Notes under the pieces: model-generated
What the model was told of the DNA's origin: nothing
Database searches by the model: none
The model's input: only the letters and a program-made list of their open reading frames with translations
Shown: positions 42,381-59,732 of the stretch, piece after piece
Position numbering within the stretch: the first letter of the stretch is position 1
How the letters are laid out: every line of letters starts with the position of its first letter
Origin: Mobula hypostoma
Lineage: Eukaryota
Assembly: GCF_963921235.1 (NCBI RefSeq)
Contig: NC_086097.1
Location: 78,184,001 to 78,248,000 of the forward strand
Reading direction: 5' to 3'
Length of the DNA: 64,000 bases
Position numbers and translations under genes: made by a program

Positions 42381-42549
42381 TATGTTACAAATAAGGTAAT
42401 TGTCTGCCATTTTTCTGAGACTACAAATATAACTTTGCCAGTTGTCAAACAGTTCAGCAACTCTGTAGGTAGATCTGCCACATGATGCCAGTAAAAGATA
42501 CCAGAAGAGCCTACACAGAGCATCATTGCCCAGATTCAGATTTAGATAT

Positions 42550-43409
42550 TGTTACGTACCCCGTAACTGGGTTGCCAAACCAGCAGAAATGGATCACTCA
42601 GTTGGAGTCTGGAGTACTAGAACTAAGAAAGTTTTATTAAGGAAACAAGCAACACAGTAATCGAAAGGATAATAAATGCAACAGTTCAGTGATGATAAAC
42701 ACACATGTGCACAGAATTAAGATAACAGCATCAATCAAGCTCTATCGTTGTCTAGGGGTAAATGACCAATTTCAAAATGACTCAAAGTTCAGTCCAGTTT
42801 AGTAGTTCAGTTCGCAGTAATCGTTGCCATGGCGGTGGACAACGTGGGGGAAGAGAGACATAGAATAGGAACAACTCATCATTCAGCACAGCTTCACTCA
42901 CAGACCAGCGAGATGGCTCACAAACAGCATTTGGGCGGGTCCTTGGTGATGTCACCTGAGGTCACCGACTGTGACCCCTCCTCCAGATGCGGTCGATCCT
43001 CTACAGTGAACCCGGCACCCAGGCAAGGGCGGACACACACCGGGTTCCCGCTGATCGTACCTTTCCACCCTTGTCGTTGTCTGGGACTTCTCACCCACTC
43101 GTGAGAAGCGCACCGCTTCCAGGGTCTCGTTACCTCGGGTGGCGTGTGTGTCTGTCTTAGCGAACCTGTCCCTTTTTATCCCCCTGCTGGGGTATCGCCT
43201 GTCCATCACTTCAAACAGTTCAGGGTTCAAAGGGGGGAGCCGCTCCAGACAGCTCTTCCTCCCACATCCCTTCATTACACATCTCCAGACGCTGCTCCAT
43301 TGTTCCTTATCTCTCCTTCCCCCGAGGGCAGGTGGCAGACCAACTGCTGATGCCACTGATGCTAGCCCAGGCCAGCAAACATCTTAATTTTATGTGTATT
43401 CTCGTAACA
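42550..43409 (-). repeat. 3' LTR (860 bp)
   Basis: Direct repeat of 46543-47402; differences seen at 43003/46996 (A/G) and 43323/47316 (C/T); minus-strand AATAAA near 42633-42638. Confidence 0.97.
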
Positions 43410-43422
43410 CTTCCCCCCTTTA
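43410..43422 (-). other. Polypurine tract (PPT)
   Basis: Minus strand AAAGGGGGGAAG abuts the 3' LTR. Confidence 0.9.
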
Positions 43423-43581
43423 AGGATTTTTACCGGGAGGTAAAAATTACAAACATGACTACATTATCTGATACATACACAATATACATCTTTAACAGTT
43501 ATTTAGCTAATACAGAGAATTTGAAGCTGTCAACACCTTGACAGACAGTCATCACATTTTCTGTTCCTTTTACACGTGTTA

Positions 43582-46443
43582 TTAATAATCCCTTAGACCA
43601 GGCTCCAACTCAGCAAACTTCATAGTGGCCAAAAACACTGATGAATTGCGACCAATGTAACCTCTCATTTGGTTTTGTCCCGGACCACAACAACAAGGGT
43701 CGTCCCATTCCGACTCAATTTTCTCTCGCAAGGGCTTAGTAGGAGGGGGACGGGTATTGACCGCAGAGTTATTGCAAAACTTCCTGCAGTACCCCACCAT
43801 CTCCAAAAGCCTTCTGAGGGCCCTCCTGTCTGTCGGGGTTGGGAGGTCAGCGATAGCCTGCACTGTAGCTTGCATCACTGCCAGCTGCCCCTGTGTCACC
43901 ACAATTCCCAGGTAAGTGACTCTCGTGTGGCCGAATTCATTTTTTTCAAGGTTCACTATCAAGCTGGCTTCAGACAGCCGTGTTAAATTGCCAATACACA
44001 CCTCTGTGTTCATCAGCCCTTTAGTCACTGAATTACTCGAAAAATATGGGTGTTGTTTACTTGGCCGCCCTATTGTAACCGACATAACCCAACGTCCCAG
44101 TTCTTTGCATTTCCTCGGGACAATCAAACACATGGGTGCGAGTCGTTTAATTACTCCTTCGGGGATTAAGGGAGAGACCTTATCAGTAGACCTGGCCAAA
44201 ACAATAGCCTTCTCCCATCTGACCGATCCCATCCTAATCTTTTCAAAATGGTTTTTTCCTCTTATCAAGGGGCCCCTAGCTTCATTGATTTCCACGCTAA
44301 CACCGACTAGGTTTGTTAGCATATCAAAAGCCGGTGACCGTCTCAGTTCGCGTCGGTCATGATCAATAACATTCTTCCCCCTGGGCAGCCGGTAAATCTC
44401 TTTCATGATTCCACCAACTGTTTCCTCCAGCACCGCAAAATGTCCACCGGGGGGTACCTCGTGGGCCATGTTAAAAACCTCATCCCCATAACTCTTTTGC
44501 ACCACCCCCCACTCCTCATCTGCGGATGCTGTACTTGATTTCCCTTTCTTCCTTAGCACCTCCTTATCCGCACAATAGCTTGTCAAGGCTGTGTCAGAGA
44601 GAGCGGTCTCGGCAAAAACCATCAGCCCCTCGTCTCGCTCCTGCGTCTGCACAAATTCTTTCCTGGCTACTGCTACGTCTGTCCCAGCTCCCTCACTACC
44701 TCCTATCTCACTACACCCTGTCTCATACAAGGTTGGCAGAAATGTTTCAGCCAAATTCACCATCGCGGGCGGGGCCTCCATGCTGGCAGGCTGACCCGTC
44801 AATCTCACGACTGGGAACACGATTCCTCCGGCGATGTCATTACCGAGCAAGACTTCCACGTCTTTCATCGGTAATTCGGGCCTCACCCCGATCGTGACTA
44901 GTCCAGAGACCAGGTTGCTCTGTAAATGTATCTGGTGCAAAGGGACTGACTCTGTCCCTTCCCCAACACCTTTGACCTCTACCTCCCCAGTCTGGGTCTC
45001 TGAGCTAAACTCTAATACACTCTTCAGTATTAGTGACTGACACGCTCCCGTGTCTCTCCAGATCCGCACTGGAACTGGTTTTAACCTCTTTTTCACTGAC
45101 ACCAGTCCGGCCGAGATAAACCTCTCGCGCCCTTCCTGGACTTTTTCAGACCTGTCCTTCCCTAGCGGTTCGCTTAACAGCTCGATACAGCCATTCAAAA
45201 TTTCCGCTTTTCCTTTCCCCGTCTCCTTCCTTGGGGCAAAGCACCTGGACGCAAAGTGTCCGACTTTCCCACAATTATAACAGACGACCCCAGGAGACTT
45301 CCTACCAGACTGCTCCCGGTCTACCTTATCCTTTTCACTAGTCCCCGGCTTACTTTCTGACTTTTCCGGTGGACTCTCCCCGCCGTCCTGACTACACTTC
45401 TGGTAGCCTTTACTCGGGGCAATCTTCATTTTATGCGTCAACGCATACTCATCCGCTAACTTAGCAGTTGCGGCTAACGTGGCTGCCTCTTTCTCATCGA
45501 GGTAGGGTCTCATACCCTCAGGGACACAACCTTTAAACTGCTCAATCAGAACCAGTTGCAGCAGTCTGTCATAATCCCCCTCTACCCCTTTCGAGGCGCA
45601 CCAACGCTCACAATATGTTTGCATCTCACGAGCAAACTCCAAATACGTGCGGTCCCACTGCTTCCTCGCATTCCGGAACCTCTGCTGGTATGCCTCCGGG
45701 ACCAACTCATAAGTCCTGAGGATGGCCTCCTTCACCACCTCATACTTCTGGGCATCTTCCGGGGATAAGGCGGAGTAAGCTTGTTGGGCCTTCCCTTTCA
45801 GTACACTCTGAAGTAAAACAACCCACTTATCCCTCGGCCAGTCCTGACTTATAGCTACTTTTTCGAAGTGGAGAAAGTACCGATCCACATCGGTATCGTC
45901 AAATGGGGGAACCAGCCTAACCTCCTGGGTCGCCCGGAACCCTCCACCTTGGTTCGGCACGAGCCCCTGCTCGGCCCTTATCTTTAACTTCTCCAGCTCA
46001 AATTCCCTTTCCCTCTGTTTCTCCTCTCTCTCCAACTGTCTGTCCCTCTCTCTCTCTTCTCTCTCCAACTGTCTTTCTCTCTCTTGCCTTTCTAACTCTT
46101 TCTCTCTCTCCCGCCTTTCTAACTCTCTCTCCTGCCTTTCTAACTGCTTCTCTTCGTGTTCTAACTGCCGTACCCGGAACTCGTGCTCGAGTCTCAGTTT
46201 TTCAAGCTGTACCTGTACCGCGTCTCCAGCAGGTTTTTCAATAGACACCACCCCCAGCTCACCTTGGGGAAACACACCTTTAGATACATAGTGCTCTACA
46301 ATAGCTCTGTGTATCTCCTCTCTCCTCATTGTCGACTTCACCTTAGCAAGATTCACCCGTTTGGCCACAGCTATCAATTCCGATTTCCTGGCATCCTCTA
46401 ATGCCTCCAAGGTCGGCGCCTTTATAAATTCCTCAACCTCCAT
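43582..46443 (-). CDS. 953-aa Gag-protease polyprotein (coiled coil, SCAN-like capsid, CCHC knuckle, aspartic protease) fused in frame to vestigial integrase and RT segments
   Basis: LVPPF...FEKVA...WP...LKGKAQQAY...YELVPEAY..RFR capsid; LIEQF (SCAN-like); CYNCGKVGHFASRC at 45241-45282; RDTGA at about 45046-45054 and LLGND; integrase remnant AHEVPPGGH precedes RT remnants PSKQHPY, LIVNLEKNEFG..VTYLG, LRRLLEMVGYCRKF. Confidence 0.93.
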   Translation of the reverse strand: MEVEEFIKAPTLEALEDARKSELIAVAKRVNLAKVKSTMRREEIHRAIVEHYVSKGVFPQGELGVVSIEKPAGDAVQVQLEKLRLEHEFRVRQLEHEEKQLERQERELERREREKELERQERERQLEREERERDRQLEREEKQREREFELEKLKIRAEQGLVPNQGGGFRATQEVRLVPPFDDTDVDRYFLHFEKVAISQDWPRDKWVVLLQSVLKGKAQQAYSALSPEDAQKYEVVKEAILRTYELVPEAYQQRFRNARKQWDRTYLEFAREMQTYCERWCASKGVEGDYDRLLQLVLIEQFKGCVPEGMRPYLDEKEAATLAATAKLADEYALTHKMKIAPSKGYQKCSQDGGESPPEKSESKPGTSEKDKVDREQSGRKSPGVVCYNCGKVGHFASRCFAPRKETGKGKAEILNGCIELLSEPLGKDRSEKVQEGRERFISAGLVSVKKRLKPVPVRIWRDTGACQSLILKSVLEFSSETQTGEVEVKGVGEGTESVPLHQIHLQSNLVSGLVTIGVRPELPMKDVEVLLGNDIAGGIVFPVVRLTGQPASMEAPPAMVNLAETFLPTLYETGCSEIGGSEGAGTDVAVARKEFVQTQERDEGLMVFAETALSDTALTSYCADKEVLRKKGKSSTASADEEWGVVQKSYGDEVFNMAHEVPPGGHFAVLEETVGGIMKEIYRLPRGKNVIDHDRRELRRSPAFDMLTNLVGVSVEINEARGPLIRGKNHFEKIRMGSVRWEKAIVLARSTDKVSPLIPEGVIKRLAPMCLIVPRKCKELGRWVMSVTIGRPSKQHPYFSSNSVTKGLMNTEVCIGNLTRLSEASLIVNLEKNEFGHTRVTYLGIVVTQGQLAVMQATVQAIADLPTPTDRRALRRLLEMVGYCRKFCNNSAVNTRPPPTKPLREKIESEWDDPCCCGPGQNQMRGYIGRNSSVFLATMKFAELEPGLRDY

Positions 46444-46513
46444 TTCTGCTGTTTGTCTTTTCTTTCTTTCGGGAATTTTAACCCAATCAATTTACTCCGT
46501 CCCAAATTTAGCG

Positions 46514-46538
46514 TTCAAAATCGCGGACGAGAACCCCA
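46514..46538 (-). other. Primer-binding site, tRNA-Pro-like (imperfect)
   Basis: Minus strand TGGGGTTCTCGTCCGCGATTTTGAAC, 4 nt from the 5' LTR, versus the tRNA-Pro complement TGGGGGCTCGTCCGGGATTTGAAC. Confidence 0.8.
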
Positions 46539-46542
46539 CTTA

Positions 46543-47402
46543 TGTTACGTACCCCGTAACTGGGTTGCCAAACCAGCAGAAATGGATCACTCAGTTGGAG
46601 TCTGGAGTACTAGAACTAAGAAAGTTTTATTAAGGAAACAAGCAACACAGTAATCGAAAGGATAATAAATGCAACAGTTCAGTGATGATAAACACACATG
46701 TGCACAGAATTAAGATAACAGCATCAATCAAGCTCTATCGTTGTCTAGGGGTAAATGACCAATTTCAAAATGACTCAAAGTTCAGTCCAGTTTAGTAGTT
46801 CAGTTCGCAGTAATCGTTGCCATGGCGGTGGACAACGTGGGGGAAGAGAGACATAGAATAGGAACAACTCATCATTCAGCACAGCTTCACTCACAGACCA
46901 GCGAGATGGCTCACAAACAGCATTTGGGCGGGTCCTTGGTGATGTCACCTGAGGTCACCGACTGTGACCCCTCCTCCAGATGCGGTCGATCCTCTGCAGT
47001 GAACCCGGCACCCAGGCAAGGGCGGACACACACCGGGTTCCCGCTGATCGTACCTTTCCACCCTTGTCGTTGTCTGGGACTTCTCACCCACTCGTGAGAA
47101 GCGCACCGCTTCCAGGGTCTCGTTACCTCGGGTGGCGTGTGTGTCTGTCTTAGCGAACCTGTCCCTTTTTATCCCCCTGCTGGGGTATCGCCTGTCCATC
47201 ACTTCAAACAGTTCAGGGTTCAAAGGGGGGAGCCGCTCCAGACAGCTCTTCCTCCCACATCCCTTCATTACACATCTCCAGACGCTGCTCCATTGTTCCT
47301 TATCTCTCCTTCCCCTGAGGGCAGGTGGCAGACCAACTGCTGATGCCACTGATGCTAGCCCAGGCCAGCAAACATCTTAATTTTATGTGTATTCTCGTAA
47401 CA
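46543..47402 (-). repeat. 5' LTR (860 bp)
   Basis: Direct repeat of 42550-43409, adjacent to the PBS. Confidence 0.97.
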
Positions 47403-48387
47403 ATATATATATCATATGTACATCAAAGCATACAGAGAAATCTGTTGTTTGCCGTAACTGCCATCACATCTAAGGATGAGCAGGAGCATCCCTCTTCAGC
47501 ACCAGCATAGCATGTCCACAATGCTGGCAGAACACCACCAGTGACAAAACAACAACAGCAAAATAAGCCCCATTCCTCCCTCATACCCACTCACCCAAGC
47601 GCCTACACAGTCCTCTAACCCAGGACAGGCCGTCTTCAGCTTTCAAACTGTTATCTTCTCTTATGTTCTGATTTGCAGCCTCAACTTCTGGACTTCAAAT
47701 TGGCCTTTGGGATTCAATCTGGACTTCTGATTGACCTTTGGGCTTGATCTTTGGTATTGACCCAGTACTTGCTGATGACGACGAATGAAGACCCTGGATG
47801 AGGACCTGAACTTTAGGCTCCAAACTCACCACTAGCCCACATTCTCGCTGGTCTGCTGACCCGACATCTGACCACATGTGCAGGGAGAAGGGATTAGGCA
47901 TCATTGGCTTAACCAGTTCAGCATAACATTATGGGCTGAAAGGTCTGTTCTTAAACTCTAGTGTTTTATGTAATGTATTTTCTCTCCACTAACCCATTCA
48001 TGTCTCTCCAAACAAATTTTTCTCAATCCCTAGATCCAAAATACAATGTAGGTTTTTCTTTTTGCTATGTGCTTTCTATACACTCACCTGCCCCGTCATG
48101 CATTTTACCTGTTCACTTGCCAACATTACAATCCAGCACCATAACACATAGATAAGCCTGTTCAGACTGCTTCTTTCACTAGGGTGTTGGCCTTCCTTCA
48201 TGCAGAACTGCTGTCATCCAGCACTGGTCTGTTCACTAAACAAACACAATCTCACACACACACACAAACAAACACACAAACTTCCTTGAACATGCCACAA
48301 CATTTGGCAAAGAGAGCAATCCACCCACGAGCAAGCACCTCTCCAGGGTTGGGCTCACAAGTGGAACTTGCTGCAGTATCAAAAAGC

Positions 48388-49947
48388 TGTCACAATGGGC
48401 GGGGGCTTTGGGAGCAAGGGTGGACCCAAATGCAAGACACATCTTGTGAGGTTAATTAAATTTAGTTTATCATTCAATACCAGGAGAGCAAGGCACGAGC
48501 AGGAAATAACAAACTGAACAAGGACTCAGGACTACGACTAGGCTGGGACTAAGGGTCTGGGCTTGGGCTGTGAATCGGCTCCCAGAACTAGAGGAGACAT
48601 GAAGAGGCTAGGGTATGGACTCCGAGCCAGAGACTGGGCAAGGACCCAGTACCTGGGTCTTGCCTCGGGCTTGGACCCCAGAACCAGGCAAGGCCATGAC
48701 ATGGGCTAGGGAGAGGAGGAACATGGGAACACAGAGCCTCGGTCTTGGGAGAGCAGGTACATGGGACCATAGGCACATACACAGAACAGAGAGCCGGGAC
48801 CCCTCCTTGGGTACAGGACATAGGACCGGAACTCACACACAGAACAGAGAGCCGGGACCCCTCCTTGGGTACAGGACATTGGGCCGGGACTCATGAATCT
48901 CCACGGGGCAACAGCAAGACGGCCTGACTTACCACACGGAGGCAAGGACAAGCCAAGACAAGACATGACTCCCCACGGGGCAACGGCAAGACGGCCAGAC
49001 TTACCCCCACGGAGGCAAGGACCAGTCAAGACAAGACATGACCTCCCCCGCGGAGCAATGGCAAGACGGCCTGACCTACCCCACGGGGGCGAGGACAAGA
49101 CAAGACAAGACCAACACAAATGGACACCAGACAGTACCTATCTAGCTCAGGTGATGGAACTAGACCAAAGTGCAGGCGGGGGCTGCAGACGAGGGCTAGA
49201 GGCGAGAGAGGCAGAGAAGGGATTCAGACGAGGGGATAGGACAGGAATCACAGACCGCCAGGGCCAGGACTTGGTGCTCGAATGCCGCCAGGGCCAGGAC
49301 TTGACTTGGTGCTCGAATGCCGCCAGGGTCAGGACTCGACTTGGTGCTTCAATGCCGCCAGGGTCAGGACTCGACTTGGTGCTTCAATGCCGCCAGGGCC
49401 AGGACTTGGACTTGGACGTCTTACTTGGATGCTGACAGGGCCAGGACTTGGACTTGGATGTGGTACTTGGATGCCGCCAGGGCCAGGACTTGACTTGGAT
49501 GTGGTACTCGGATGCCGCCGGAGCCAGAACGTGGTACTTGGAACCTCCGGGTAGTGGCGAGCTCTAGACTCAGCCCGGGAACAGTAGACAGCTGCTTCTG
49601 ATTCTCTCCAGCGGGTAACTGATGGACCCACCTTGATGAGGAAACTTTGCAGGCTCGCTTCAGCGAGGTAACTGGACTGGGTTGCTGTGGTGCGGAAGGG
49701 CGAATTTCCGGCACTCGCTTCGGCAGAGACTAGGCTTACACCGGCCAGATGACATTAGCACGCCTTGACTTTGCAGACGCTCCCGCTCCAGACGGCTGAT
49801 AGCCGGAGACTATAAACTACCGGTTCAGTCTAGTGTTAATTGTCTCTAATCACCAAAGTCGAGGGACACGGGAAAACAGGGAATCAACGGTCCGGATTGT
49901 AACATAAACAAGGTAAATTTAAAGGGACCCCAAACCGGACGATGACA
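48388..49947 (-). mobile_element. Solo LTR-like element (1,560 bp) of Sushi/Gypsy type with internal tandem arrays
   Basis: TGTCA...TGACA termini; AAAGC TSD at 48383-48387 and 49948-49952; 'ggtggacccaaatgca' also present in the LTR near 27397-27412. Confidence 0.85.
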
Positions 49948-51779: not shown

Positions 51780-53130
51780 GGAGCATCCAGGTGGATATAA
51801 AATCACTGAGTACACGATTGCCTCAGAATCGCGTGATACGCTACACGTATCAATACCACAATCCGGCACAGCAGAGTGGATGAAGTAAACGGCCGTGCTC
51901 AGACCTGCAGAGCAGGTAACAACAAACACTGACTGGTGCTCCCGCCCAGACACACATGCCGAGGTTGTTGATGTCTGCACTGGTGACAGCTGAGTCGTCC
52001 TGAAGTTCCCCGGCTGACCTTTGGCACATTTCATTTAGTGTGCAATGCATGGTGCTCAGAAAGCGAACGCACTTAACACGATCAGCCGCACTGGGGCCGG
52101 CTGGGAGAAGTGAATGAGGGAAAATAACATGGGTTTGACAGGATTTTGTTTATTCCTACTGCAGGTTTGGTCGGGATACATCTGTTATGCTGTTTGTTAA
52201 CTGGATTACTTACTTGTGTTGTGTTACATTAGAAAATGGGGTAACACGCTTCTTAGTTATGCATATGAGGATATCCGATTGTTAACTTCCAATTTTGGGG
52301 TATTAACTGCAAGGTGCGCGCCGTTTTCAACAACATTGAGAGTATTTAATATCAGACGTCGGGCAAGGGAAAGGGGGGAGAAAGCGAGTGGAGGTAGGCA
52401 GAAGGGATTGCGGGAGAGGAGGAGTGGGTGAGGGGTTGGGGTGGGAGGGGGGAGAGAAAGCGAGTGGAGGTAGGCAGAAGGGATTGCGGAGGGAGGAGTG
52501 GGTGAGGGGTTGGGGTGGGAGGGGGAGAGAAAGCGAGTGGAGGTAGGCAGAAGGGATTGCGGGAGAGGAGGAGTGGGTGAGGGGTTGGGGTGGGAGGGGG
52601 GAGAGAAAGCGAGTGGAGGTAGGCAGAAGGGATTGCGGGAGAGGAGGAGTGGGTGAGGGGTTGGGGTGGGAGGGGGAGAGAAAGCGAGTGGAGGTAGGCA
52701 GAAGGGATTGCGGGAGAGGAGGAGTGGGTGAGGGGTTGGGGTGGAAGGGGGAGAGAAAGAGAGTGGAGGTAGGCAGAAGGGATTGCGGGAGAGGAGGAGT
52801 GGGTGAGGGGTTGGGGTGGGAGGGGGGAGAGAAAGCGAGTGGAGGTAGGCAGAAGGGATTGCGGGAGAGGAGGAGTGGGTGAGGGGTTGGGGTGGAAGGG
52901 GGAGAGAAAGCGAGTGGAGGTAGGCAGAAGGGATTGCGGGAGAGGAGGAGTGGGTGAGGGGTTGGGGTGGGAGGAGCGGGTTTCAGCTGAGCCTGACACC
53001 AGCTCCGCTCCGAGCGACTTCTGCGAAACTGGGCACAGAAGTCCTGACCCTGTGACTCTGACTGACGGGCAGAAAGGGTCTGCAGAAGCCCAGATGTTGG
53101 CCGAAATCCCGAGATCCCGCCCAAAGAATT
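51780..53130. promoter_or_regulatory. CpG-enriched, apparently unique sequence flanking a minisatellite; possible promoter or first-exon region
   Basis: Local CpG density is higher than the surrounding non-TE DNA; GC-box-like cccgccc near 51941 and 53116; no TE motifs recognised. Confidence 0.35.
52372..52975 (+). repeat. G-rich minisatellite, 73-76-bp unit, 8 copies
   Basis: Unit aaagcgagtggaggtaggcagaagggattgcgggagaggaggagtgggtgaggggttggggtgggagggg(g)gag starts at 52381, 52457, 52530, 52606, 52681, 52756, 52832, 52907. Confidence 0.97.
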
Positions 53131-53371
53131 AGTAGTGGCTAGTGGATGAACTGACAGACCCTCTCAAAAAGATGAGCAATCGCTGGAAACCCTCTCACAA
53201 TTGCCAGTTACCAGCACCTGATTAATTAATGGACAAGCTTGTAGATAGTTCCTAAACTAGTCTGGTGGAATGTGGGTGGCGAATGGGGTAGGGGGAGGGT
53301 GGGAGTGGTAAAGAATTAAGGAGAATTTGCATTATGAGCAAATATGAGTAAGTGTTGAGCAGTCAAGGGCC

Positions 53372-57743: not shown

Positions 57744-59732
57744 TCCTCTTCCTCCTCTTCTTCTTTTTTGTTTTATGGCTGTTGGCAACCAATTATCTGT
57801 GCATTACCGCCAACTGCTAGACTTCATGTGTTCCAACCAAATATGTCCTGGAGTTCTCTACTTTAGACAATCTAGTTCAGCCTGCAGTTCTTTATTAGCA
57901 TCACTCTGTAGTTGCAATTCCTCGTGAATGCTTAATGCGCTCATTAGATAATGCCGCAAAATGCTATTCTTCCCTAACTTTGTCACATGTTTTTGCGAAG
58001 TTGCATTACCTCAATCACATTGATTTCATCTACATCATTTGTAGGACTAAAATTGTCTTGCTAAAGAATAGTAATTATCGCGCGTTATACTTTTAAAATT
58101 GCTGTTTTTCCAAGTCTATCTGCTTTTTCAGGTTTTCCTTTTCTTGGATTGTAGCCTGCAGTTGTTTACTGAGACCTCAGAGTTCTTCATTTGCTTCCAT
58201 GTTTTCATCTTATAATCTGAATGTAGATAATTCACTTTGCAACAAATTCCTTTTCCATTTGTATCCTTGTAATAATTTCCTCCATTTTCCAATCTCTTCC
58301 CAACTCACTCTTGTTCTTGTCAGGTACTTCTATTTGTTGTTGGAGTTCTGCACATTTACTCTGGGCTTCAACCATAAAATCTGAGGATTTTCCTTAAGTT
58401 CTGAAACATTTCTTAAATTCCTGACCATTTGCGATAAATATACTGCCATTAAGATTCCATCTCCCCTGCCTGTGAACTGTTGTATCCTCCATTCAGCATT
58501 TCTTTGACTTCTTCCAACCTAATTCCTTTAATACCAAGATACTTTTCTGCAGACTTGACGTTATTTTTAATTTTCTCAGTTCTTTTGCTTGTTTGCGCTG
58601 AACAATTAATTGCATCCACCATAAAAAACACGAAATCCTTTCTACACATTAATAGTGTATCCTTATTTTTCATATTACAACTCTCACAATTCACCAGTTT
58701 ATTATTCCCTGTATTTGTTTGCTTGACAGCCTTTTTTTCAGCAAATTCTTTCACTGCCTCTACATAACTGATTCCTTGAGTTACTTTTACATATTGTATC
58801 TCAGCCGCCTTCTTGCTATAAATGCACCCTCGATAAGCTGCGCTGTGTTCCTCGCCACAATTGCAGCATTTCAGCCTAGCTCCCGCTTCACATTTCCCAT
58901 ATTCATGTTCTCCAGCGCATCTCCCACATCTTTGTTTCCCTCTGCAGACCACCGCAATGTGCCCGAATTTCTGACATTTATAGCATCTTAAAGGCGGTGG
59001 TATATATATTCTAACCGCATAACACATATACCCTAAGTAAACGTTAGTCGGCAATCTCTCTTCATCAAAGTTAATCATTACCGATAAACTATCACACGTT
59101 TTCCCATCTCTTGTAACTTTCAAACGTTTGGCCTCAATAATTTTTGCTCCTTTTATGTTCTGTTTAATCTCATCCATAGTAACTTTTGTTGGTATCCCCG
59201 AAATAACTTTAGTCCGCTTTCTATTGTTGGGTATTGAGCATTGTACTTCTTTGCCATCTATTTTACATAATCTTATCACTTGGCCTTGCTGAGCACTATC
59301 CCGACAAATCACTAATAGTGATTCATTTCGTAAAATCTTTGCTCCTTTAACCTCACCTATAATTTTGTTGAGCATCTTCGTCAAATGAATCAGGTTCCAG
59401 TCACCAAAAGATGCCCCGTCTTCACTTAGTTTTATAATTGCTTTAATCTCATCTTCTTTCCATTGTTTTGCTGTCCTGTTTTGATCATCTGCTGATTCCT
59501 CAGAGTCTGATATCCCATACCTCTGCTTTCTTTTCTTCCTCTTTCCATTCCGTTCCTCTTTCCCACCAATCTCCATCTCTAGTTCACTTTCACTCTCGCC
59601 AAAAACTTCCCTCAACGGCTCTTTCCTTGATGTTCTCTCTCTCCACCATTTTCCAGTCACAATTCGACTCTCTTCGAACAACTCAATTTACTTTCCACCA
59701 CAACACCCAGCAGCAGCCCTATCCCATCAGCC
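57744..59732 (-). mobile_element. ORF1-only non-autonomous Nimb/I-group LINE derivative (~2 kb)
   Basis: TSD agcagttgga(t/c)cttcc at 57728-57743 and 59733-59748; (GAA/GGA)n tail; 3' hairpin gttggc...gccaac at 57781-57814; open ORF1; no RT. Confidence 0.85.
58449..59681 (-). CDS. LINE ORF1 (Gag-like nucleic-acid chaperone with three CCHC-type knuckles); first ATG at 59576
   Basis: PPPLRCYKCQKFGHIAVVC-RGKQRCGRCAGEHEYGKC-LKCCNCGEEHSAAYRGC; ISYVEAVK; stop overlaps a downstream ATG (TAATG). Confidence 0.88.
   Translation of the reverse strand: MFEESRIVTGKWWRERTSRKEPLREVFGESESELEMEIGGKEERNGKRKKRKQRYGISDSEESADDQNRTAKQWKEDEIKAIIKLSEDGASFGDWNLIHLTKMLNKIIGEVKGAKILRNESLLVICRDSAQQGQVIRLCKIDGKEVQCSIPNNRKRTKVISGIPTKVTMDEIKQNIKGAKIIEAKRLKVTRDGKTCDSLSVMINFDEERLPTNVYLGYMCYAVRIYIPPPLRCYKCQKFGHIAVVCRGKQRCGRCAGEHEYGKCEAGARLKCCNCGEEHSAAYRGCIYSKKAAEIQYVKVTQGISYVEAVKEFAEKKAVKQTNTGNNKLVNCESCNMKNKDTLLMCRKDFVFFMVDAINCSAQTSKRTEKIKNNVKSAEKYLGIKGIRLEEVKEMLNGGYNSSQAGEMES

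Follow-up and report, generated by a model that had tools for sequence, protein, structure and literature searches.

The window analysed here (64,000 nucleotides of the Mobula hypostoma genome, contig NC_086097.1) holds one copy of what is probably a long-lived, high-copy deletion derivative of a Gmr1-like retrotransposon, which has kept Gag and protease (PR), likely borrows its reverse transcriptase (RT) and integrase (IN), and likely maintains a condensed pol remnant for the sake of translation itself. The element spans 42550-47402 on the minus strand (4,853 bp) and has all the LTR-retrotransposon hallmarks, i.e. paired TG...CA LTRs, target duplication, primer site and polypurine tract. Two mismatches separate its 860-bp LTRs, and a single 953-aa ORF fills most of the 3,133-bp interior between them, as the first-pass annotation of this DNA had said. 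Its features, in the direction of transcription and in window coordinates, are:

47403..47406, no strand: target-site duplication ATAT, right copy (read from the sequence)
46543..47402, minus: 5' LTR, 860 bp, TG...CA; 95-98% identical to LTRs of young full-length copies
46520..46538, minus: primer-binding site, an imperfect tRNA-Pro complement, same as in the full-length partner
43582..46443, minus: single ORF of 953 aa, Gag-PR plus condensed pol remnant (ORF reading)
45949..46218, minus: E/R-rich coiled-coil repeat of Gag, its length varying in frame among copies
45430..45699, minus: SCAN (capsid C-terminal) domain, aa 249-338 (Pfam)
45241..45285, minus: CCHC zinc knuckle, aa 387-401 (Pfam)
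44809..45123, minus: aspartic protease, DTG at 45046-45054 (alignment and predicted fold)
44350..44763, minus: integrase N-terminus remnant (HH half of HHCC), ending at a 867-nt deletion
44044..44349, minus: remnant of the integrase end, IN-RT linker and RT start, ending at a 384-nt deletion
43693..44043, minus: RT palm and thumb remnant with eroded catalytic motif, ending at a 258-nt deletion
43585..43692, minus: RNase H C-terminal scrap and 12 frame-shifted terminal codons (alignment to full-length relative)
43410..43421, minus: polypurine tract (read from the sequence)
42550..43409, minus: 3' LTR, 860 bp, 2 mismatches against the 5' LTR
42546..42549, no strand: target-site duplication ATAT, left copy (read from the sequence)

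By its SCAN domain and domain order the element is classed as a Gmr1-like LTR retrotransposon derivative. In the accessible parts of two accounts, this Ty3/gypsy clade has a SCAN capsid followed by PR, IN and RT-RNase H (PMC8220671; bioRxiv 2025.03.03.638093); the ray element differs in having lost the catalytic core of each of IN, RT and RNase H. Its closest named proteins are from Mobula rays, full-length homologues carry SCAN, IN, RT and RNase H in Gmr1 order, and the integrase-before-RT arrangement claimed at first pass is seen in homologues (PR-IN-RT-RH), in the partner described below and among the remnants themselves. Pfam finds SCAN (1e-12) and CCHC in the ORF and nothing else, with no rve, Integrase_H2C2, RVT_1 or RT_RNaseH, and aa 561-953 have zero matches even at E up to 10; the SCAN and CCHC hits and the absence of complete rve and RVT_1 had been predicted. 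The protease region has a predicted retropepsin fold (pLDDT 80) that Foldseek matches to FIV, HIV and RSV proteases; Gag and protease look complete, as claimed. Alignment with a full-length relative puts all pol scraps in the native order that had been proposed, and in the native frame too. It moves WEKAIVL, first read as a late-integrase remnant, into the integrase-RT linker, and shows that the RT scrap picks up again upstream of the catalytic motif rather than past it. An eroded form of that motif survives: the full-length element and one old copy have YIDD, later ones YIGD and the window copy CIGN. It also adds an RNase H C-terminal scrap to the pieces recognised before. The RT-thumb piece weakly matches Ty3 RT. 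The element lacks catalytic RT and integrase, in agreement with the first reading, and is non-autonomous. An AVTR-like motif after the protease, which may mark a cleavage site, is conserved in four homologues and deleted in intermediate and young copies.

The element belongs to a family of at least 1,422 young copies, this being the number of exact genome matches to a 22-mer of the remnant; 22-mers of gag and LTR match 2,087 and 6,271 times, the interior gives 3,190 candidate matches, and all these counts are lower bounds. All 40 interior matches scored are full length, at 97-100% identity. Among the best 30 copies, 29 have matching 4-bp target duplications, distinct from copy to copy, LTR pairs differ at 0-10 sites, and the full ORF is kept in 22; it is kept in 13 of 40 copies taken in genome order from the remnant 22-mer list (three previously analysed copies were skipped, and one was unscored as it had no start motif). 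The same remnant occurs in DNA contigs of a second organism. Deletion junctions are shared across the family and its older relatives, as the first-pass annotation expected, where private deletions in a single copy would have told against its reading. That a single copy decayed privately, or that splicing or misassembly produced the structure, is extremely improbable, and nothing speaks in its favour: more than 1,400 copies have the structure in common, with full-length matches and distinct target duplications, the junctions show microhomology and no GT-AG ends, and the second organism's contigs carry the remnant too. The run search found no sequencing run carrying the element on record as RNA; contigs from runs guessed to be RNA cover it and are uninformative on expression. 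Public gene models name the ORF as host genes (MACC1, phosphatidylserine decarboxylase, UBE2G2 isoforms), names that reflect either annotation errors or element-driven chimeric transcripts.

The condensed form was reached stepwise. A Mobula birostris protein has the same architecture with fewer deletions, and its relatives in the M. hypostoma genome have three common junctions, at which 867, 384 and 258 nt were removed. These founding deletions, all in frame, took the integrase core, the RT core and most of RNase H. Splicing was rejected as their source, since the junctions lack GT-AG ends and carry microhomology (about 5, 9 and 1 nt). Twelve further, smaller in-frame indels form a ladder from the founding deletions to the window copy, some of them still segregating among young copies, and the remnant has lost only about 13% of its length on the way. 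Uncalibrated LTR-pair divergence is 4-6% in the least-deleted copies, mostly 2-3.5% in those between and near 0 at the young end. Several frame-keeping deletions in a recent insertion had been proposed; they do keep the frame, but the deletions themselves are old. Of 20 loci that have gag but not the young marker, the condensed type accounts for 16 (15 of them intermediates) and the full type for two; one is tail-less and one uninformative.

Trees of 41 and 47 rows (the omitted rows being truncated or duplicate copies) give the parts of the element different histories. In the remnant tree the 33 condensed rows group together as a single clade (support 100). A single condensed clade is rejected for gag (AU p 3e-60) and for the LTR (25 rows, p 7e-10), and in both of these trees condensed copies interleave with full-length subfamilies of matching age. 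On this phylogenetic evidence the pol remnant has a single origin, and LTR and gag have been swapped with successive full-length subfamilies. That the protease was swapped with the helper in the manner of gag was considered and dropped: with intermediates included, its descent runs mainly along the condensed ladder, although a single clade is then rejected (one full-pol copy lies inside and basal rows are unresolved; it is not rejected without these rows). One full-pol element carries condensed-lineage gag-PR, so exchange went at least partly towards the partner. Template switching is established biology for co-packaged retroelement RNAs and would be the route of exchange.

The partner is found in the same genome, where an integrase query retrieved full-pol relatives, of which 20 were examined. 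The youngest are 95-98% identical to the window copy in the LTR and ~93% across LTR-gag-PR, and only 70-80% identical in the remnant. Uninterrupted frames of 1,535-1,564 aa with catalytic motifs are present in three of the eight young full-length copies examined. A 22-mer from the young full-length integrase has 17 matches (again a lower bound) against 1,422 for the remnant 22-mer, about 1 to 84, a ratio for the young subfamily only, older and mostly decayed full-pol copies being far more numerous. The primer site is common to partner and condensed element and complements a tRNA-Pro gene of the M. hypostoma genome, and this full-length element is a candidate for the helper with matching LTR and primer site envisaged at first pass. 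The condensed element is very likely its non-autonomous passenger. The imperfect tRNA-Pro site occurs in most copies, full-length and condensed, of all ages, and is the main form across subfamilies; an exact complement is seen in nine young copies of the 40 sampled frame-blind, as though the primer had been copied over it. Two of the full-length elements lie in tandem, with one LTR in common.

Selection was gauged by a counting method on triplets of real copies rather than a codon likelihood model. Branch dN/dS by this method is 0.17-0.23 for gag and 0.23-0.29 for the protease, against 0.66-1.09 for the remnant, whose intervals include 1; the corresponding pol pieces in the full-length line have 0.22-0.26. 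Among young copies (68 of 70 used, two dropped), the N/S ratio of variants shared by three or more copies is 0.46 in gag and 0.54 in PR, versus 1.7-1.9 for singletons, a depletion of amino-acid changes with p 9e-4 for gag and p 0.02 for PR. By both measures, Gag and protease are under purifying selection. Together with the helper candidate, this supports the proposal that the element supplies its own capsid and protease and would borrow RT and integrase. The remnant may be weakly constrained, to judge from its shared N/S of 1.56 versus 2.85 for singletons (p 0.058, same 68 copies) and a dN/dS of 0.66 (0.41-1.27) on the latest branch.

The open frame of the remnant is very likely under selection, as expected of a lineage selected to stay translatable, which the first-pass annotation took this to be. 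Lineage indels are multiples of 3 in 15 of 15 cases in the body, but in one of six at the end and in the UTR; the end is taken to start at a fixed 14-nt deletion some 40 codons upstream of the old stop, a boundary set after viewing the data. No stop is fixed in the remnant lineage, whereas neutral simulation over 0.2 changes/site expects about 7 (zero stops, P about 7e-4), and all 10 stop codons among the 68 young copies are singletons. An indel count from copies picked by protein search was set aside as biased and redone frame-blind. The in-frame bias persists in the frame-blind samples: in 23 old copies (of 30, seven being left out for large private indels or truncation), 12 of 16 shared indels are in frame versus eight of 40 private ones (p 4e-4). 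The other four shared indels break the frame, in small old groups; three copies have in common a +1 shift at an early point of the remnant, a sign that one frameshifted sub-lineage gained a few copies. The lineage tolerates a fixed frameshift close to the end, and also -1/+1 pairs that compensate each other. A search for longer homologues of the remnant gave none, which is weak evidence. Translation as such, not the protein sequence of the remnant, is probably the reason for the open frame.

A scheme of this kind can be put together as follows. The RNA of the element would be translated into a Gag-PR-filler, which would assemble with the full-length products, the two RNAs being co-packaged. 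tRNA-Pro would prime reverse transcription of the condensed RNA, and RT and integrase from rare full-length relatives would copy and insert it in trans. An early stop would add about 1.2 kb of untranslated RNA, and RNA decay or lost cis-packaging, i.e. loss of the coupling of Gag to its own RNA, would remove such variants, while frameshifts near the ORF end would be harmless. The frame would thus be kept, likely, because the RNA must be translated nearly to the 3' LTR. Of the roles suggested earlier for the pol scraps, a docking surface or specific protease substrate is unsupported, remnant dN/dS being near 1; protection from NMD may fit best, in the form of protection coupled to translation.

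A second Gmr1-like family in the same genome, more decayed yet open, is a supporting lead for the same translation reading. It is without SCAN, CCHC, DTG, integrase core and RT start, and four copies, hand-picked for long frames and with LTRs covered in part, have 817-1,110 open codons and common deletions; dN/dS is 0.75-1.16 in their gag and integrase remnants and 0.44-0.65 in RT-RNase H. A related query gave 150 matches out of 150 scored. Proteins of the stingrays Hemitrygon and Hypanus, and one other, combine Gag-PR with an integrase stub and a tail of ~300 aa that is open and resembles a decayed gag-PR; it is 36-45% identical, at the protein level only, to the gag remnant of the second family. 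They are possibly recombinant passengers with another filler. Such a Gag-PR with duplicated tail was also expected in the M. hypostoma genome, but the four loci examined are a different decayed family. Internally deleted Gmr1-like polyproteins also turn up in fish, a crinoid and other samples; these may represent additional in-frame passengers, deletions private to one copy or splicing introduced by gene models. Elsewhere in the window, a 412-codon open frame with CCHC-type knuckles (58449-59687, minus strand; Pfam only zf-CCHC, E 0.016) presumably resembles ORF1 of a non-LTR retrotransposon, and tandem arrays of 27-74-nt units at 48668-49539 and 52257-53163 contain long low-complexity open frames.

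The frame might instead be kept for the protein, with the remnant as a sequence-tolerant part (a spacer, a degron or an aid to Gag-PR processing). The hint of weak constraint and the small loss of length point this way, as does a derivative missing 979 nt of the remnant that did not spread and is single-copy. We consider this unlikely: the remnant dN/dS intervals include 1, its erosion has been continual, the second family stays open without recognisable Gag or protease motifs, and the stingray relatives have an unrelated tail that is open all the same, as seen in their proteins. The lone 979-nt deletion derivative may equally hint that remnant RNA or its length matters, and two 30-nt windows of low divergence (0.04) would suit RNA signals for packaging or second-strand priming; the open frame would then be a by-product or an effect of copy picking, the window copy having first been noticed for its ORF. 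This is very improbable, given that frame-blind samples show the same in-frame bias, that synonymous divergence in the remnant (0.18-0.24) is similar to that in gag, and that RNA signals do not predict an absence of stops.

A further alternative concerns what the condensed element does for its partner. It could give surplus Gag and protease that a single-ORF full-length element cannot, the two being mutually dependent. Its persistence alongside several successive full-length subfamilies, purifying selection on the protease of its own lineage, the full-pol copy with condensed-lineage gag-PR and the preponderance of condensed loci among those bearing gag would all accord with such a division of labour. 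Selfish use of Gag in cis accounts for the same selection, however, and the full-length line is older than the deletions; we find mutual dependence decidedly unlikely. On a broader view, this would be a two-part vertebrate retrotransposon with a common LTR-gag pool and two mutually dependent pol cassettes, the abundant one providing translated filler and most Gag and protease and the rare one RT and integrase, and more widely there would be Gmr1-like passengers selected for translation alone, with junk frames of up to 1,100 codons; this is a speculation to which we give little credence at present. Translation as such is the reading that we retain.

Several known systems resemble the ray element in part. 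Coronavirus (MHV) defective interfering RNAs, reportedly the subject of van der Most 1995, concern an RNA virus and, as far as the available account goes, were shown by experiment, while the ray element is read from genomic fossils. Mouse IAP 1Δ1, on which the paper is said to be Saito et al. 2008, is likewise an in-frame gag-pol fusion made by internal deletion, non-autonomous and outperforming a rare full-length helper, at least in the excerpts available. There, a 1.9-kb deletion gives a fusion acting in cis and most new insertions, according to the accessible text (PMC6466679, PMC7411935). In the same excerpts, cis action of the fusion product or of its translation is reported, whereas for the ray element it would follow from selection on the frame; IAP 1Δ1 is described as an endogenous retrovirus derivative whose single deletion removes part of gag and which needs Gag and Pol in trans. 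The ray element is gypsy-type, its Gag is collinear with that of the partner and selected, its PR is intact and selected, and 15 stepwise in-frame indels have left a near-neutral remnant. The plant TR-GAG elements, to which it was likened at first, are a looser analogy: in the part of the source consulted, they too are non-autonomous, young, multi-copy LTR elements with one ORF, encoding Gag alone, but are <4 kb, lack pol domains and have 5-bp duplications, and for TR-GAG1 a partner could not be identified (PMC4350172), whereas the ray element has 4,853 bp, a 4-bp duplication, a protease and pol remnant and an identified partner. In SNARE/SARE of soybean and Dasheng/RIRE2 of rice, LTRs are matched to the partner by swapping (PMC5491270, in the portion available); in the ray, the swapping extends to gag, and the passenger's protease keeps to a lineage of its own and its remnant stays open. 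LTR matching between partners is called a hallmark, and coding remnants are common in sugar beet non-autonomous families, in such passages of this literature as were accessible. We found no earlier description of the family in the literature reachable, most subscription journals and repeat databases lying outside the search, so that a repeat-library entry is possible.

Non-autonomous LTR elements, LTR swapping and in-frame deleted passengers are thus each known singly. The ray family contributes a fossil series, within one vertebrate genome, in which selection on the frame can be told apart from selection on the protein: Gag and PR are conserved, the remnant is near neutral, and the frame is intact through 15 indels. 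Why a defective genome must be translated becomes a question testable with over a thousand natural alleles. The family is also a caution: a long open frame in a repeat, of the kind already deposited under uncharacterised or misnamed host proteins, does not have to encode a function.
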